DNA of 64,000 nt from Patescibacteria group bacterium. GTDB taxonomy: Bacteria; Patescibacteriota; Patescibacteriia; UBA9934. Both the position numbers and the translations under genes were made by a program. The notes beneath the pieces are model-generated. The model was not told the origin of the DNA and made no database searches. It worked only from the letters and a program-made list of their open reading frames with translations. Below, piece by piece: positions 4,255-46,659 of this stretch (its first letter is position 1; each line of letters begins with the position of its first letter). The stretch covers positions 4,686-68,685 of the forward strand of contig JBBTSM010000005.1 of the NCBI GenBank assembly GCA_038064675.1, written 5' to 3'.

Positions 4255-5400
4255 CTACCGCATCTTCTCCAGAATCTCCCGAACCGCTGAGATTGCTCGA
4301 TCAATATCGGTCGCCGCAGTTGATCGGCCGAGGGAAAATCGGATACTTCCACCGATGCGGTCGGCAAATAATCCAAGCGCAGCAAGAACATGACTCGGCT
4401 CCGATCCTCCTTTACATGCCGATCCGGTAGAGGCAGCAATTCCTGCTGCGTCGAGGCGCAACACAAGCTCTTCACCCTCAATTCCATCGAACGCGACATT
4501 TGCATTGTTTGGCAAACGACGAATGCGATCGCCGTTTAATGACGTCCCACGGATTTCGAGGAGTCCCTCGATCAGCCGCTCACGAAGCGGCAACAATCGA
4601 CTCGACTCGCGATCTCGCATTGCGACAGATTCGGAAAGCGCCGACGCAAATCCAACAGCTCCGGCGATATTCTCGGTACCAGGCCTACGACCAGATTCCT
4701 GCTTTCCGCCACCGAAGACTGAGCCCCACGGCGCATTTCGTCGAATATACAAGGCTCCAGCGCCCCTTGGTCCGTACACTTTCGGGCTTGAGAGCGTCAA
4801 AAAATCAACGTGAAGCGATTCGACATCGATCTCCAGATAGTTCGGCGCCTGACTCGCATCGGAATGAAAGAGCGGATATACCGACCCACGCTTCTTTCGC
4901 CACGCATCAATCGCCTTTCCAATGTGATGAACGTCGTGAACAACACCAATCTCATTATTCGCCATCATCACCGACACCAACACCGTATCATCACGAAGTG
5001 CGGCGACAATCGCATCTGCGTCAACGTGCCCGCGTTCATCGACGGGAATAATTGTCACATCAGCTCCGGCTGCATGAATCGCGCCAAGAACAGCGGCGTG
5101 CTCTGTTGCAATGGTGACGACGTGTTTTCCCCGCATGAATCCAGCCTTCAGCGCTCCAAACACCGCGAGATTGATGGATTCTGTCGCACCGGAAGTCAGA
5201 ACGATCTCATCACCATGCGCAACAATACATTTTGCAATCGATTCGTGGGCGGCGCGAAGAATGCTCGCAGCCTGCACGCCCTCCGTATGTAAACTCGAAG
5301 GGTTTCCCCATACTCCAGTGAGGATTGGTTCCATCGCCATCCACGCCGTGGAAGAAAGTGGCGTTGCGGCAGCGTAATCAAGGTAAATTCGATCAGGCAT
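4255..5400 (-). CDS. iscS: cysteine desulfurase (IscS/NifS family)
   Basis: 381 aa; LTSGATESINLA, SSPKVYGPRGAGALYIRR, C-terminal active-site GSACKGG. Confidence 0.85.
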   Translation of the reverse strand: MPDRIYLDYAAATPLSSTAWMAMEPILTGVWGNPSSLHTEGVQAASILRAAHESIAKCIVAHGDEIVLTSGATESINLAVFGALKAGFMRGKHVVTIATEHAAVLGAIHAAGADVTIIPVDERGHVDADAIVAALRDDTVLVSVMMANNEIGVVHDVHHIGKAIDAWRKKRGSVYPLFHSDASQAPNYLEIDVESLHVDFLTLSSPKVYGPRGAGALYIRRNAPWGSVFGGGKQESGRRPGTENIAGAVGFASALSESVAMRDRESSRLLPLRERLIEGLLEIRGTSLNGDRIRRLPNNANVAFDGIEGEELVLRLDAAGIAASTGSACKGGSEPSHVLAALGLFADRIGGSIRFSLGRSTAATDIDRAISAVREILEKMR

Positions 5401-7152: not shown

Positions 7153-7554
7153 ATGCTAGAATCCCTTTGTATGGAGTTCTCCACACATTATCCCCCGTTT
7201 GCGGAGAAAACCGTCGTCGTCCTTACCAATACCGAGAAAGCTCGGATTCTTTCTGTTGATGGCCGCGAAGTGACGGAAGTTGAGGAGCTCACAATCAACA
7301 TCCCCGAGATGGCAGACTTCGAAGCACAGAAGACGGCGCAAATTTCGGCACTCGCAAAAAAGGTTTCAAAATCTATCGAAAAACTCCTCGCAAGTTCCTG
7401 CACCGTCGCTATTCTTTGCGTCCCGGAAGTAAACCGCGAACAACTCCTCGCCACAATGAATCCAGACACCGTCGCCAAAATCGCCACCGTCATCCCCAAA
7501 AATCTCTGCGCAATGAAACTTGAGACGGTAATGCGGATTTTGTTGGAGAGTTAG
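7153..7554 (+). CDS. hypothetical protein (133 aa), translationally coupled to downstream Nudix ORF
   Basis: ATG 7153 after end of the VIT-family gene (6402..7109); stop TAG 7552-7554 lies 7 nt before ATG 7562. Confidence 0.45.
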   Translation: MLESLCMEFSTHYPPFAEKTVVVLTNTEKARILSVDGREVTEVEELTINIPEMADFEAQKTAQISALAKKVSKSIEKLLASSCTVAILCVPEVNREQLLATMNPDTVAKIATVIPKNLCAMKLETVMRILLES

Positions 7555-7561
7555 GATACTG

Positions 7562-7590
7562 ATGGGGTCAGGTCTTGAATCTATGCATTT
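7562..7590. repeat. left arm of perfect 29-bp inverted repeat (ATGGGGTCAGGTCTTGAATCTATGCATTT)
   Basis: exact reverse complement present at 8048-8076. Confidence 0.95.
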
Positions 7591-8049
7591 TATGATTCGA
7601 AAGCCGGGAGCGAAAGCAATTGTTGTGTATAAAGATAAACTATGCCTCGTTCTTCGCGATAACAATCCAGCGATTGCCCATCCTAACAAATGGAATACGC
7701 CCGGTGGAGCGATCGAGGAAGGCGAACCCCGAAAGACGCAATAATCCGAGAGCTTAAGGAGGAAATCGATCTCGATGCTACCGAAATCATCGAAACTGGG
7801 ATCACAATGTATGCAGACGGCAGCGTTGTGCATCGGTATTTCGTTCCCGTCACTGATGAGCAATTTGCAAAAATTCGACTCGTTCACGAGGGTCAGCGCC
7901 TGGAATGGTTCACGCTCGACGAAGCACTCAAACTCGTCGACACTCCTCACCTTTCCATCTATCTAGAAACACACGTTAACGATATTCGGACACTAATGAA
8001 AGGCGAGCGGGAATTCGAGCTAAGAAATGAGGAGCTCGAACTTCGCTAA
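7562..8049 (+). pseudogene. Nudix hydrolase gene disrupted by a 1-nt frameshift near 7726 (or sequencing error / programmed shift)
   Basis: ORFs 7562..7744 and 7690..8049 together give MIRKPGAKAIVVYKDKLCLVLR...PGGAIEEGE[T]PKDAIIRELKEEIDL = canonical Nudix box GX5EX7REUXEEXGU only if one base is restored in gaacccc. Confidence 0.6.
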
Positions 8050-8076
8050 ATGCATAGATTCAAGACCTGACCCCAT
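8048..8076. repeat. right arm of perfect 29-bp inverted repeat
   Basis: AAATGCATAGATTCAAGACCTGACCCCAT; begins 1 nt into the TAA stop (8047-8049) of the Nudix ORF. Confidence 0.95.
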
Positions 8077-8078
8077 TA

Positions 8079-9800
8079 TTATTTCTTCGCTGGTTTCTCC
8101 GCATCAACGAGCCACTGAATGATTCGGAGGTCGTCGTAAGAATATTTTCCTTGGAAATGGTCGAAGACTGGGCGGAGGAAGCGGCCGCGGGTTTTGAGTT
8201 CGATAATGATCGGCGCAACCTCGGCGTGAATGTCTTTGACATCGTTCCGCAGCCGATCGAAGACATTGTTCGGTAACTTGTCGAGCGCGCGGACCTCCTC
8301 AAGATGGCCGACAATTGTTCCAACGGTGCGCGATCGCTCCTTTGCAACATCTGCGATCGATTTTCCATCGATGACAAGCGAGAGCGTTTCCGTCCATTTT
8401 GGTTCTTTCGTTTTCTTTGCCGGCTTCGATGGAAAGTATGCCGAAAGCGCGTCGATCGTTTCACGAATCACCGACTCCTTTTTCCCACCACATGCTTTGA
8501 TAAACGCATCAGCATCGGCTTTCCGGTCCTCCTCGCTCCGATTCGAAATCACCGTCTCCGCTGCAAGCGACTGCGCGCGAAATTCCTCGTCTCTTTCAAG
8601 CACCACAGGATCAACTTCAAGAGCACGCGCATTCAATCCGCCAAGGAAGAGCCCCGCCAATGATCGAACACGAGAAAGCGCGACGTAACCCTGGCCGTAC
8701 GCAAATGCAGTACCAAGGTCGATAAACGCGCCGTCGAGCGACATGCCCTGGCTCTTGTGTACGGTCATTGCCCACGCTAATCGCAGCGGAAGCTGACGAA
8801 GTGTCGCAAGCGGAGCGCCACCGTCTCCATCCACACTCCACATTCCCGGCTCCACACAAATCATTCGGCCAGACTTTAATTGGACGACTGGATATTTTGT
8901 TTCAGCATCGAAATCGACAACGTCAGCGATCGATCCGTTCACGTATCCCTCGGCCGGATTGTTTCGCGTAAACATGACGCGAGCACCAATTTTCAAGGTC
9001 AGTTTTTCCGGCGACAAACACCCGCGCTTCATTTGCTCGACCAATTTTGGATTTCCTGACGAGGTCATGGTGTACGTTTTCTCTTTCGCGAGAAGCATCC
9101 GCAGACGATCGGTGTTGATTCGATCGACGTCCGCGTTGTGCGAGTAGAGTTTTGTGATGTCGCGATCGTCGGACATACATCGACGCGCATGAAGGGCTTC
9201 GACGTGATCCGCAGTGAGCGATCCACGACGGAGTGCGGCAAGGATATCGAGAAAGATCGGATCTTCCTGACGATGTTGCTCCGACAAATAACAGACCGTG
9301 AGATTCGCGTCGTCCCAGCTGCGTGCGGCAAATGCGAATCGTGCAGGAGGCTCATCATGACGAGTCACCGGCGGAAGCTGAAAGAAGTCGCCAACGAGCA
9401 CGATCTGAATGCCACCAAATGGCGCATCGGAATCCTTAAGGGTTCGGCAAACGAGATCAACGGAATCCAGCATCGCAGCATCGAGCATTGAGATCTCGTC
9501 GATAATAAGCACCGATGTTTTGTTCATCCGTGCCATGAGCGCACTGTTCGTTTTTAATTCCCGACACTCCCCTCGCGAAATGTGCTTTCGAATTCCCAAT
9601 CCGCTCCAGGAATGAATCGTCATTCCGCCAATGTGCGTTGCAGCGATTCCTGTGCTTGCCGTCATCGCCGGAGCAACACCGCGTGATTGCAAAAATTTGA
9701 TGTACTCGCGAATGGTGTGACTCTTTCCGGCGCCAGGTTCCCCCGTCAAAAAAACGTTTGCGCCAGTCTTTAAAATATCGAGCGCATCCGCTTGGGTCAT
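8079..9800 (-). CDS. ATP-dependent DNA helicase, PIF1/RecD-like (SF1) with C-terminal HTH domain
   Basis: 573 aa; Walker A GEPGAGKSHT, Walker B LIIDEISM, RecD-like motifs QLPPV, TVHKSQG; C-terminal ~120 aa HTH-like. Confidence 0.8.
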   Translation of the reverse strand: MTQADALDILKTGANVFLTGEPGAGKSHTIREYIKFLQSRGVAPAMTASTGIAATHIGGMTIHSWSGLGIRKHISRGECRELKTNSALMARMNKTSVLIIDEISMLDAAMLDSVDLVCRTLKDSDAPFGGIQIVLVGDFFQLPPVTRHDEPPARFAFAARSWDDANLTVCYLSEQHRQEDPIFLDILAALRRGSLTADHVEALHARRCMSDDRDITKLYSHNADVDRINTDRLRMLLAKEKTYTMTSSGNPKLVEQMKRGCLSPEKLTLKIGARVMFTRNNPAEGYVNGSIADVVDFDAETKYPVVQLKSGRMICVEPGMWSVDGDGGAPLATLRQLPLRLAWAMTVHKSQGMSLDGAFIDLGTAFAYGQGYVALSRVRSLAGLFLGGLNARALEVDPVVLERDEEFRAQSLAAETVISNRSEEDRKADADAFIKACGGKKESVIRETIDALSAYFPSKPAKKTKEPKWTETLSLVIDGKSIADVAKERSRTVGTIVGHLEEVRALDKLPNNVFDRLRNDVKDIHAEVAPIIIELKTRGRFLRPVFDHFQGKYSYDDLRIIQWLVDAEKPAKK

Positions 9801-14558: not shown

Positions 14559-15692
14559 CTACTGCCTGATAGGCATCACGATGTAGAGATATTTCTCATC
14601 GGGAAGATTATGCGGAGTAACGACGCACGGTTGCATGGCATCGATGAACTTGAGAACAATCTTTTCCGACGTCATCGCATTCACGCCATCGAGAAGATAA
14701 CGGAAGTTCAACACAGCTGAGTTTACGTTTCCGGTCATTTCCCCCTCAACCGTGACCGTGTTCTCGCCGCGACCAACGTCGGCCGCAGAAAGCGTGACGG
14801 TTTTTTCGGCCGGGTTCGCCTCGAGACGCACGTCGAACAATCCAGCCTTCGAGAACAGGCTCGTTCGACGAATGGCCTGGGAAAATGCCGTTTTATCAAT
14901 CGTAATCTCTGTTGCCGACGTTTTGGGGATAATCTGTCGATAATCTGGATAAACACCCTCAACCGTACGAGATGACAACTCGACGGTTCCGTAACGGAAC
15001 ACAATCTGACTTTCAGTAAGCTCGACGTCAATATTTTCTGGATTTTCCACGCTGTCGCGAAGCACGCTCAAGATTCGTCGAAGTTCTCCGAGCGTTCGCG
15101 ACGGCACAATTGCCTTCCGCTCGCCTTCCGCAGCTTCGCCAAGTGCGATCGTCTTTTCTCCGAGACGATAGCTGTCTGTCGCGGCAAGGACGAGTTGCTT
15201 ATTGAGCCCGTCAAAGTGCATGAACACACCGGTAAGCGCTTGTCGTGCCTCGTTCGTCGCAACAGCAAAGAGCACTTGGCTGAGCGCCGAATCAAGAGCC
15301 GCGGCAGGAACGACAAATCGAACACCGCCAGTGACCGGTGGGATTAACGGGAATTCGTTTGCGGGAATCCCATTAATCTTCGTCTTTGTTTTTTCGCAGA
15401 CAATCGATACCGCGTGGTCGAGAAGATCGAGATCAACTCTTTCGTTTGGCAAAAGGGCAACGTAATCCGCAAAGAGTTTTGATGGAAGCGTGTATTCTCC
15501 TGGCTGGTCGACCTTCCCTCGGATCGTGCACGTAATCGTCAACTCAAGATTCGTTGCGGTGAGTTTGATTCCTCCAACGTCTGCCCGAAGCAAAACATTG
15601 TTCAGAATAGGAAGGTTCGTATTCTTTCCAGAGATGTGACTCGTAATAGCCAGACCCTGGTATAAATTTTCTCGCGTGCAAGAGAGCTTCAC
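14559..15692 (-). CDS. dnaN: DNA polymerase III beta sliding clamp
   Basis: downstream of dnaA; N-terminus with GTG start gives MKLSCTRENLYQGLAITSHISGKNTNLPILNNVLLRA, the canonical DnaN start; ORF extends to 15869. Confidence 0.85.
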   Translation of the reverse strand: MKLSCTRENLYQGLAITSHISGKNTNLPILNNVLLRADVGGIKLTATNLELTITCTIRGKVDQPGEYTLPSKLFADYVALLPNERVDLDLLDHAVSIVCEKTKTKINGIPANEFPLIPPVTGGVRFVVPAAALDSALSQVLFAVATNEARQALTGVFMHFDGLNKQLVLAATDSYRLGEKTIALGEAAEGERKAIVPSRTLGELRRILSVLRDSVENPENIDVELTESQIVFRYGTVELSSRTVEGVYPDYRQIIPKTSATEITIDKTAFSQAIRRTSLFSKAGLFDVRLEANPAEKTVTLSAADVGRGENTVTVEGEMTGNVNSAVLNFRYLLDGVNAMTSEKIVLKFIDAMQPCVVTPHNLPDEKYLYIVMPIRQ

Positions 15693-15980
15693 AATCAGGA
15701 AATTAATATCTCTATAAGAACCAGTAGTAACAGTAAGGGGTGTGTATGAAGTGGATAACGACGGAATGCTATGAGCAAAGAGCGAATTGAGCGAATTGAG
15801 CGAGGGATAGAACGTGTGGACGACGGTGATGAGCGTGGAGATAACTTCAGCGAATCGTTTGGCTGACATTTCTGTCCCCTTGTTATCCTACCCGTTTCCC
15901 CAGGGAACTCCACCCACTCGTCCACTGCTTTTTGCACCGTTCATCCACAATTCACAGGGAAGTACCCTTCTGTCCCCATG
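15693..15980. promoter_or_regulatory. dnaA-dnaN intergenic region with DnaA-box-like motifs (second oriC module) and 3x tandem 9-mer GAGCGAATT
   Basis: AGTGGATAA (1 mm), TCATCCACA (1 mm), TTATCCTAC, TTATCCCGC; tandem gagcgaattgagcgaattgagcga at ~15779-15805. Confidence 0.45.
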
Positions 15981-17369
15981 TTATCCCGCATAGAGTTTTT
16001 GTTTGATGAGTTCAAGATCTTTCTGGAGCTTTTCGTCGGTTTTTACGAGATCGGAGATCTTTCCATATGCATGCATTGCTGTGGTGTGATCTCGTCCGCC
16101 GAGCTCGTCTCCAATTGCTGGATACGACGTTTTCATTTCCTCTCGCATGAGATACATGATGATTTGTCTTGGGAATGCGAGTTTCTTTTCGCGGGATTTT
16201 CCGAGGATGTCCTCAATGGTGATATCGAAGTATTCGGAGACGATAAGAATCAACTGGCGCGGTGTAACAGTTTTGCGAACGTTTTCCGATTCGAAGCTTG
16301 CGATGATTGGTTTTACCGTTTCAAGCGTTGGAGAGATGTTGCGGAACTGATGGATGGCGATGATTTTATTCAGTGCACCCTCGAGCTCACGGATGTTCGA
16401 GTAGATGTTGCTCGCAACATAGTGAAGAATCTCGCGATCGAGGGAGAACGACTTCTCCATACACTTGCGCTGAAGAATCGCGATGCGTGTTTCGAGGTCT
16501 GGCATCCCGACATCCACAAGCATTCCCCACTCAAGGCGGGACTGTAGACGTTTTTCAAGACTGGTGATGGATTTTGGTGGGCGGTCGGACGAGATGACAA
16601 TCTGACGCTGTTCTTGATGAAGCGCGTTGAAGGTGTGGAAAAATTCTTCCTGCGTTCCTTCTTTACCAGTGATGAATTGAATATCGTCGATGAGGAGGAG
16701 GTCGACATTGCGGTAGCGATCTTTGAATTCCTTTCCTTTACCGGAACGAATGGCATTAATGAAATCGTTCGTGAATCGCTCACAAGTGACATACAGAATG
16801 CGAACATTTGGATTGCGACGACGCATTTCGTTGGCGATGGCGTGAAGAAGATGTGTTTTTCCGAGTCCGACGCCGCCGTAGATAAAGAGAGGGTTGTATG
16901 CCTGTCCTGGTTGTGCAGAGACGGCTTGTGCCGCGGCGTGAGCGAGTTCGTTTTGCTTTCCAACGACAAATGTCTGAAAAGTGTATTGTGGATTGACGGT
17001 GATTGTGCCTGTTCCGCCGGTTTCTGCGCTTCCTGTCGCGACGAATCCGTAATCTTCGGCTCCTTCTTTTGGTGCAACAGGCTTCTTCTCCTCGAGAAGA
17101 AGTGGCTGTGGGGCCTCGGTGCGCGTTGCGACGCGATACGTAAGGCTGCGAACGGCTTGGTTTGTGATTCCCTGGATTGTTTCTAGGATATCTCGGTGAT
17201 GTTTCTTGCTGATCCACTGCTGGGTGATGGTGTTTGGGACGCCAATAACTACTTCGCCGTTGTGGTAGTCGCTCACAAAGGTTTTTCGAAACCATGTTGT
17301 GAAATGGGCTTTGCTCACTTTGAGCTCCATTTCCCCCAAGACTGCCTCCCAAAGCTCGTGTGTATTCAT
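15981..17369 (-). CDS. dnaA: chromosomal replication initiator protein DnaA
   Basis: AAA+ GVGLGKTHLLHAI, LLIDDIQF, C-terminal DnaA box-binding domain; N-terminus MNTHELWEAVLGEM at ATG 17367-17369 (ORF opens with TTG at 17441). Confidence 0.9.
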   Translation of the reverse strand: MNTHELWEAVLGEMELKVSKAHFTTWFRKTFVSDYHNGEVVIGVPNTITQQWISKKHHRDILETIQGITNQAVRSLTYRVATRTEAPQPLLLEEKKPVAPKEGAEDYGFVATGSAETGGTGTITVNPQYTFQTFVVGKQNELAHAAAQAVSAQPGQAYNPLFIYGGVGLGKTHLLHAIANEMRRRNPNVRILYVTCERFTNDFINAIRSGKGKEFKDRYRNVDLLLIDDIQFITGKEGTQEEFFHTFNALHQEQRQIVISSDRPPKSITSLEKRLQSRLEWGMLVDVGMPDLETRIAILQRKCMEKSFSLDREILHYVASNIYSNIRELEGALNKIIAIHQFRNISPTLETVKPIIASFESENVRKTVTPRQLILIVSEYFDITIEDILGKSREKKLAFPRQIIMYLMREEMKTSYPAIGDELGGRDHTTAMHAYGKISDLVKTDEKLQKDLELIKQKLYAG

Positions 17370-17441
17370 AGGTATTGCGGCAGGTGGTGATGGGCTTAGG
17401 GATTCGTTGAGGGGCGTGAACTTCGGAGGCATCATAGTCAA

Positions 17442-46447: not shown

Positions 46448-46524
46448 GACCTCGTAGCTCAACTGGATAGAGCAGGTCCGTCCTAAGGACAAGGTTGCAG
46501 GTTCAACTCCCGCCGAGGTCACCA
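46448..46524 (+). tRNA. tRNA-Arg (CCT), with G27:A43 and A51:C63 non-canonical pairs
   Basis: GACCTCGTAGCTCAACTGGATAGAGCAGGTCCGTCCTAAGGACAAGGTTGCAGGTTCAACTCCCGCCGAGGTCACCA. Confidence 0.6.
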
Positions 46525-46642
46525 TTGGTCATTTAAACAACGAATTGCGTTGTCGCCACTCCGGTGCTCGCGCGCTGTACGTCTATGTGCAGCTTACTTC
46601 GCTCCTCGTGGCTCCTTGTACTTCGCCGTTTAAATGACCAAT
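46525..46642 (+). repeat. long hairpin element directly 3' of tRNA-Arg (possible divergent member of the structured repeat family)
   Basis: perfect 15-bp closing helix attggtcatttaaac/gtttaaatgaccaat enclosing ~88 nt; shares ttggtcattt with copies A/C. Confidence 0.4.
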
Positions 46643-46659
46643 GATATTTAGGGAGTCTA

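Follow-up and report, generated by a model that had tools for sequence, protein, structure and literature searches.

This report concerns a perfect 29-bp inverted repeat that brackets a frameshifted Nudix hydrolase gene in the genome of a Patescibacteria group bacterium (assembly GCA_038064675.1, contig JBBTSM010000005.1, positions 4,686 to 68,685; this whole stretch of 64,000 nt, or 64 kb, is referred to as the window). The two arms of the repeat are likely to be terminal inverted repeat (TIR) units of the TIRtron type lying beside a resident Nudix gene, that is, mobile-DNA litter and not a gene switch. As far as sequence can tell, they are an addition to the known, little-studied TIRtron/TIRYT family, occurring here in a Patescibacteria genome around a Nudix pseudogene. 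This reading is carried by the identity of the arms with the repeats that flank a transposase gene on another contig, and by the patchy presence of such arms at a conserved gene order in related genomes.

Structure and placement of the inverted repeat

The arms and the gene between them are as follows.

7556-7591, plus strand: left arm, putative TIR unit, with its 25-nt core at 7564-7588 (GGGGTCAGGTCTTGAATCTATGCAT) and the perfect repeat at 7562-7590
7592-8049, plus strand: Nudix hydrolase gene, read as a pseudogene, with its frame split into 7592-7744 and 7690-8049
8048-8082, minus strand: right arm, putative TIR unit, with its 25-nt core at 8050-8074 and the perfect repeat at 8048-8076

A preliminary description of the locus, made from the letters alone, had placed the 29-mer ATGGGGTCAGGTCTTGAATCTATGCATTT at 7562-7590 and, after a spacing of 457 nt, its exact reverse complement (8048-8076), and both the coordinates and the complementarity were reproduced. 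The repeat extends imperfectly to 35 nt (94%; 7556-7590 and 8048-8082), the left arm reaching down to 7556 in this imperfect extension and up to 7591 through a run of T. The placement of the arms was also as first described: the left arm ends 1 nt ahead of the Nudix ATG (7592), and the right arm begins 1 nt into the Nudix stop codon, at the second base of the TAA (8047-8049). The right arm occupies the entire gap between the stop codon of Nudix and that of a convergent helicase gene. This is the sole such pair in the window, and no match was obtained in shuffled windows (0/100). The description had asked about other copies of the 29-mer, and within the window there are only the two arms; searches with the core (1 mismatch), the 29-mer (3 mismatches) and an nhmmer profile returned no further copy of the unit, and a genome-wide repeat of the repetitive extragenic palindromic (REP) kind was dropped as a candidate on these results. 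No target duplication was found at the window arms.

An assembly or amplification artefact, combining a chimeric inverted duplication with a homopolymer error, has nothing in its favor beyond its a priori possibility, and we give it next to no chance of being right. Contigs of metaSPAdes (ENA) and Logan assemblies from at least seven Hainich groundwater runs, at least eight independent assemblies in all, carry both the arms and the frameshift (99.6-100% identity), and therefore neither can be an error of a single assembly. Like architecture was also found in other species and other studies. The two reservations that had been attached to the locus at the outset, a frameshift that was only an assembly error and an inverted repeat that was only a local duplication artefact, are thus removed, the first by the recurrence of the frameshift in those runs and the second by the occurrence of the arm sequence in other lineages and around a transposase gene.

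The same repeat flanks a transposase gene

A scan of JGI metagenomes with the degenerate unit GGGGTCAGGTCTTGAATYNANGC matched at least 119 contigs (median GC 0.68), and the mini-element counts given further below are among those. In at least nine contigs, a protein of about 290 aa is encoded beside the unit, with a Pfam Y1_Tnp domain (E 7.5e-10) and the HUH motif NHYHLL (NHxHLL); in the soil form of this transposase, the C-terminal part is a helix-turn-helix (HTH) domain of HTH_23/HTH_28 type, matching both HTH_23 and HTH_28. At least seven contigs have the Y1 plus HTH gene bracketed by convergent units, six of the pairs being 929-1036 nt apart and that of contig L176 1560 nt. In L176, an insertion of about 650 nt (675-1330) interrupts the unit-bracketed gene and encodes a classical short IS200-type TnpA (MDEFESLSHSRWECKYHVVFIPK...), so that one Y1 element is nested within another.

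The closest counterpart to the window arms came from a contig of low GC (L184; 0.46), for which longer ENA contigs (L215 and L216) were available. These encode MreB, a GT4 glycosyltransferase and a TrmB regulator, followed by a 285-aa protein with a Y1_Tnp domain (Pfam, E 3e-14). The transposase gene of L215 has GGGGTCAGGTCTTGAATCTATGCATTTT directly before its ATG at the left and the perfect reverse complement at the right, with the stop codon lying inside the right repeat. On both sides, the TIRs of L215/L216 are identical to the window arms (28/28 nt), and the arrangement of TIR, TTTT and ATG is that seen in the window; the left arm of the window, which matches the left TIR of this gene over those 28 nt, is also identical to the repeat of the Uhrbacteria locus L028, described below. 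The closest named homologue of the TrmB regulator is from a Patescibacteria metagenome-assembled genome (MAG; 52% identity), and the L215 contig is likely to be of patescibacterial origin. The L215 protein is 48% identical to the soil representative over its full length, and both score 76-77 bits against the NCBIfam model REP_Tyr_transpos, for which the cut-off is 80. A search for close homologues of the low-GC transposase returned a single fragment of 114 aa.

The name TIRtron was given to RAYT-like genes flanked by long terminal inverted repeats, and the name TIRYT to the enzymes that they encode (Di Nocera et al. 2013, PMC3733652). Many TIRtron TIRs share the motif GGGGWSAS, which is also given in PMC6006769, and their families, of moderate abundance, comprise singles, dimers and clusters, with one sharply defined group in Acidobacteria (PMC3733652). 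Most TIRYTs fall into TnpA-Y1 subclass 2.1 and have tails of the HTH_23, HTH_28 or DnaA_C-like type (Quentin et al. 2018, PMC6006769). The likeness to the present family is extensive: both window arms start at their outer end with GGGGTCAG, which matches GGGGWSAS; an inverted TIR pair surrounds a RAYT-like Y1/HUH gene with a C-terminal HTH, the right TIR overlapping the 3' end of the gene; and elsewhere the units occur as singles, dimers and clusters, with no target duplication. There are also differences, in that the window pair encloses a Nudix pseudogene instead of a transposase, the window has two copies in 64 kb with no transposase found there, and the host belongs to the Patescibacteria (Candidatus Uhrbacteria). 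When the literature was searched for RAYT or REPIN in combination with Patescibacteria, none of the 15 papers listed named the Patescibacteria.

Orthologous loci in Uhrbacteria

The loci of the closest relatives belong to Candidatus Uhrbacteria, a lineage within the Patescibacteria. The gene order VIT1 (minus strand), an open reading frame (ORF) of 127-134 aa, Nudix, and PIF1 helicase (minus strand) is kept in every Uhrbacteria relative examined, down to 62% Nudix identity. The comparison of related genomes that had been proposed earlier found that the repeats are not absent from all relatives: zero, one or two arms are present at this conserved gene order. No arm was seen at the Nudix locus of L018, L025, L219 and L221, and in the arm-less L018, L219 and L221 the gap between the small ORF and Nudix is 1-3 nt. 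The right arm is absent from L018 and L019, in which the 3' ends of the Nudix and helicase genes overlap. L008, L019 and L027 have a left arm only, in degenerate form, and L022 has a single unit, downstream of Nudix and in plus orientation. L011/L012 (79% identity) carry their own perfect 29-bp inverted repeat around Nudix, which has only the outer GGGGTCAGGTC in common with that of the window. L028 (Nudix 62% identical) has the window arm sequence on both sides of Nudix (29/29), together with a second pair, one unit of which abuts the helicase ATG and the other the stop codon of an ABC transporter gene, making four units in 6.4 kb in the order + - + -. Finally, in L220 (79% Nudix identity) the left unit, TAAGGTCAGGTCTTGAATCTGTGCATGTA, has decayed by four substitutions and the deletion of a T, five changes without compensation in the canonical right unit, AAAATGCATAGATTCAAGACCTGACCCCATCA.

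Since arm-less relatives share the conserved gene order, Nudix has long been resident at this locus, to which the arms were added. The decayed left and canonical right units of L220 mean, in turn, that the arms there are separate insertions of different ages. The perfect complementarity of the window arms then arises because both are canonical copies of the same unit, and not because one was copied from the other. An alternative suggested by L011, that the arms are kept identical by compensatory evolution or local copying, was dropped after the match to the L215 transposase repeats and the finding in L220. The patchy presence at orthologous sites, the differing ages of the L220 arms, and partial tandem duplications at the 5' end of some units are indirect signs that the units may have been mobilized by a transposase.

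On their 5' side, most Uhrbacteria units are preceded by T(G/A)A(T/A), which often doubles as the stop codon of the gene that enters the unit. Of the 14 Uhrbacteria-type units, 11 follow a stop codon in sense orientation at a distance of no more than about 45 nt, and for seven of these the distance is 7 nt or less. A 3'-end or terminator element was considered and ruled out, as the unit does not form a hairpin by itself and the L028 copy at +5207 abuts a start codon. Partial tandem duplication of the outer end of a unit was seen at 2940-2975 of L028 (CTGAGGGGGTCAAAA CTGAGGGGGTCA CTGAGGGGGTCAGG), and a similar 5' duplication at the high-GC soil contig L119, upstream of the unit at 4812-4834 (GATGGGGTCAA GATGGGGTCAA GATGGGGTCAGG), so that this scar is common to two very different hosts. 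The duplications and the T(G/A)A(T/A) flanks would fit repeated action of an enzyme at the outer end. A second type of unit, AAAGGGGTCAGGTCGT(C/T)(G/T)ATCGTACGGTT, is 27/29 identical between L011 (3948-3976 and 4462-4490) and L022 (3478-3508), its position and orientation relative to Nudix differing between the two; no transposase was found for it.

The geometry of the locus could also be that of a passenger cassette, in which TIR-Nudix-TIR is a non-autonomous TIRtron derivative, with Nudix replacing the transposase, that a TIRYT could mobilize in trans. The segment is indeed built like the L215 element, with identical TIRs, a TTTT-ATG left junction and a stop codon overlapping the right TIR, and three lineages (the window, L028 and L011) bracket exactly this gene. 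A cassette is nevertheless quite improbable. In relatives with no TIR or one TIR, Nudix is at the same site with the same neighbors, and the two arms of L220 differ in age. No copy of Nudix was found in another context with TIRs (L032, a paralogue in the L028 genome, has none), and none of the at least 119 metagenome matches listed encodes Nudix, the small ORF or the helicase at the unit-bearing locus.

The preliminary description had also raised the possibility of a long-range helix between the 5' and 3' ends of the message. In this account, the arms, whatever their transposon origin, would have been co-opted as an RNA duplex around the Nudix message, serving RNase III-type processing, mRNA stabilization or translational masking. 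The predicted fold does pair the arms, with a minimum free energy of -183 kcal/mol compared to -150 +/- 6.5 for shuffles (z = -5.1), and the duplex would abut the start and stop codons. The helicase gene of L028 is likewise bracketed by units of opposite orientation, and pairing is perfect over 28-29 nt in three Uhrbacteria lineages, as against 3 of 64 soil pairs that are perfect over 25 nt. However, the arms show no G-U or compensated pairs and are canonical transposon sequence, the canonical right arm of L220 faces a left arm with uncompensated changes, one or both arms are missing in most relatives, and the bracketed gene is dead in the window. A helix would form, but its pairing is not conserved across lineages, and we consider a selected role for it unlikely.

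Orientation of the enclosed segment

An invertible segment (inverton) had been put forward as well, whereby recombination between the arms would flip the 457-bp segment and switch Nudix between two convergent transcription units. A perfect repeat of 29 bp is within the range known for invertons, and the four alternating units of L028 have a superficial likeness to a shufflon. Against this, only one orientation was seen in assemblies, both in all contigs from at least seven samples and in all arm-bearing lineages, and the arms belong to a transposon family. A Pfam scan of ORFs between about 1.4 and 17.4 kb of the window did not reveal a site-specific recombinase.

The Logan assemblies (k=31) are informative on this point. 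Their contigs break at the left arm only, the left-hand contigs ending at 7587 and the right-hand contigs starting at 7562 (four assemblies each, five samples in all).

7557-7592: Logan contigs around the left-arm break (loci L003-L005, L007 and L014-L017)

Inversion as the cause of these breaks would predict an end at 7590 and a break at the right arm, and was rejected on the observed ends (7587 and 7562) and on the lack of any break at the right, where L014-L017, from four samples, cross the junction intact. The breaks at the left arm fit the presence in the community of an additional copy that has exactly the 34-mer 7558-7591, between different flanks. Of the right arm only 29 nt would be shared, which is below k-1. 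The asymmetry of the breaks is hard to reconcile with a detectable inverted subpopulation, and an inverton is very unlikely indeed.

The repeat family in metagenomes

Alignment of 188 distinct instances gave a sharply bounded unit of 25 nt, GGGGTCAGGTCTTGAATTGA(C/G)GCAT, with no conservation immediately outside it (positions -1 and +25). The window arm corresponds to AT, the unit and TT, and three inner positions of its unit depart from the consensus. Over its outer 17 nt, the unit is the same in low-GC Uhrbacteria contigs as in soil or sediment contigs of about 68% GC, which points to either a very strict recognition of DNA by the enzyme or horizontal spread.

Close convergent pairs of units were present on 63 of the at least 119 contigs, and the 64 unique pairs correspond to hairpin mini-elements that span 53-97 nt, with size peaks at 53-54, 62 and 96-97 nt. 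Their outer 16 nt do not vary, the imperfections being in the inner part. Direct repeats of at least 5 nt in the flanks, which would indicate target-site duplication, were not in excess among 63 mini-elements. Those of 96-97 nt (L097, L119, L131 and L171; L102 and L103) share internal sequence as well, e.g., ...GCATTCCCGTACCGGTCTTGTCTCGGTTGGGCAACGGC..., which suggests distinct non-autonomous sub-families.

The mini-elements bear on a further proposal of the preliminary description, that of a gene cassette captured by a foldback element or by one resembling a miniature inverted-repeat transposable element (MITE). The part concerning the arms stands, as they are TIR units of a family that forms hairpin mini-elements. 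The part concerning the gene does not, as Nudix was not captured but keeps its synteny with zero, one or two arms.

A known RNA family was dropped as a candidate, as Rfam gave no match in the window region or in nine element-bearing loci. A tRNA-like or att-site origin of the unit was rejected on inspection, the fold not fitting a T-arm or acceptor. A literature search with the literal core string returned irrelevant eukaryotic and viral primers only.

Comparison with other known elements

The REP/REPIN-RAYT systems, reportedly the subject of work by Nunvar in 2010, Bertels and Rainey in 2011 and Ton-Hoang in 2012, resemble the present family in several ways. The transposases are homologous, the units are short, extragenic and next to stop codons, inverted doublets form hairpins, and the gene is flanked by inverted units. 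Canonical REP units are imperfect palindromes with more than about 100 copies per genome, whereas the Uhrbacteria unit is no palindrome, has no internal stem and is of low copy number (two in 64 kb). It starts with GGGG, without a GTAG or CGTC tag and without a conserved flank, and the transposase has an additional HTH tail and falls just below the RAYT equivalog cut-off. Membership of the canonical REP/RAYT (REPIN) group was rejected on the tag, the palindrome and the copy number.

With the IS200/IS605 family there is a common Y1 HUH core (Pfam Y1_Tnp), an absence of target duplication, and a presumed single-strand mechanism. The ends of IS200/IS605 elements differ in being subterminal hairpins and not TIRs, and their TnpA is short (about 130-150 aa) and without an HTH tail. 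The presence of a classical IS200 tnpA inside the TIRYT gene of L176 means that IS200 and TIRYT are distinct. Target-site duplication is not expected of HUH Y1 enzymes. A DDE-type MITE was rejected, as target-site duplication was seen neither in the 63 mini-elements nor at the window arms. Invertons and shufflons are similar in having inverted repeats of 20-30 bp around a few hundred bp, and in the alternating orientations of L028; they differ in that here a second orientation was not seen, an invertase was not found, and the repeats are transposon ends.

Proposed origin of the arms and points against it

The proposed TIRtron would be an element built on a RAYT-like Y1 (HUH) tyrosine transposase with a C-terminal HTH (TIRYT, TnpA-Y1 subclass 2.1). 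By analogy with RAYT and IS200/IS605 enzymes, such a TIRYT may recognize and cut its own end sequences in single-stranded DNA, and may spread the end units as single copies and inverted pairs. At the present locus, one unit would have inserted between the stop codon of the small ORF and the Nudix ATG, and a second, in opposite orientation, between the stop codons of Nudix and the helicase, the transposase presumably acting in trans and inserting beside stop codons. A transcript that runs across both arms could then form a duplex of 29-35 bp abutting the start codon, which would probably lower Nudix translation.

Several points weigh against this origin. A tblastn search for a TIRYT gene was negative both for the window and for some 80 kb from other Uhrbacteria loci, and a cognate transposase in this genome is therefore only presumed. 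The window lacks a third copy of the unit, and a typical dispersed repeat family would have a far higher copy number. Across about 140 kb of Uhrbacteria sequence, 11 of the 13 units are at Nudix flanks, which random transposition would not predict. A preference for T(G/A)A(T/A) flanks, an old copy serving again as a target, or a recent spread by horizontal transfer may tentatively be offered for this clustering. The 29/29 identity of the window and L028 units, at a Nudix identity of 62%, would likewise require recent activity, horizontal spread or strong constraint.

The Nudix pseudogene and neighboring genes

Addition of one base at 7725-7727 restores a Nudix protein of 152 aa with a complete Nudix box (Pfam NUDIX, E 2e-17), which bears out the earlier statement that a single base had to be restored near 7726. 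The lost base is one A (GAAAC to GAAC), as five aligned orthologues have GA[A/G]AC where the window has GAAC. All of 32 related Nudix proteins (151-160 aa) are in frame through the deletion site, where most have GETP; the orthologues of 151-155 aa are intact and have GETP there. Nudix is also intact in the L028 and L011 types, in which both arms are present. A programmed -1 frameshift was ruled out, as there is no slippery heptamer at GAA CCC CGA and the orthologues are in frame with GETP. Because a slippery site is absent, we take the gene to be a pseudogene, made so by a 1-nt deletion that has become fixed in the population. The 119-aa Nudix fragment is assigned by NCBI to a Patescibacteria MAG. 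The view that a bracket of inverted repeats is not a standard feature of Nudix genes was upheld.

Other features of the window referred to here are as follows.

7153-7554, plus strand: small ORF of 133 aa, conserved, preceding Nudix in all Uhrbacteria orthologous loci
8079-9800, minus strand: PIF1-family helicase with a C-terminal HTH_40 domain, convergent with Nudix, its stop codon 2 nt outside the right arm
14559-15869, minus strand: dnaN
15981-17441, minus strand: dnaA

The small ORF has a sub-threshold resemblance to baeRF_family10 (E 9e-4; 20 bits, cut-off 27) and no NCBIfam match. Its stop codon (7552-7554) is 37 nt ahead of the Nudix ATG, the gap being almost wholly left arm, and so the translational coupling with Nudix that had been described does not hold literally here; the corresponding distance in arm-less relatives is 1-3 nt. 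The last 45 nt or so of the ORF (about 14 C-terminal residues) are 41/45 identical between the window and L028, despite the Nudix proteins being only 62% identical. The PIF1-type helicase was found converging from the right, as reported before.

The cumulative GC skew has its minimum at about 16 kb of the window, which, together with the position of dnaN and dnaA, places the replication origin about 9-10 kb from the Nudix locus. This proximity might be relevant to an enzyme working on single-stranded DNA at replication forks; DnaA_C-like tails are present in some TIRYTs. Elsewhere in the window, a 22-nt inverted repeat (91%, 77-nt spacer; 46523-46544 and 46622-46643) begins at the 3' end of tRNA-Arg(CCT) (46448-46524), upstream of tRNA-Ala.

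Significance

What looked like an exotic architecture has become a documented case, and it carries a caution for genome scans, namely that a gene bracketed by perfect inverted repeats is not necessarily part of an inverton. The 25-28-nt unit (TGATGGGGTCAGGTCTTGAATCTATGCATTTTA) and the matching enzyme of the L215 type provide a concrete substrate and partner for probing the action of TIRYTs.

A wider consequence would follow if TIRYTs were able to act on any DNA that lies between inverted units, which would make TIR-gene-TIR arrangements mobilizable or excisable cassettes. We regard this as having only a slim chance of being correct. If it were true, Y1 transposases would have a route for relocating or removing host genes in Patescibacteria, whose genomes are tiny, and the clustering of units at Nudix and the helicase in several species would reflect repeated enzyme action at a locus about 9-10 kb from dnaA and the origin.

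The genomes of Candidate Phyla Radiation bacteria are usually thought to be nearly free of repeats. The loci described here indicate that TIRtron end-repeats are present in these bacteria and are evolutionarily dynamic.

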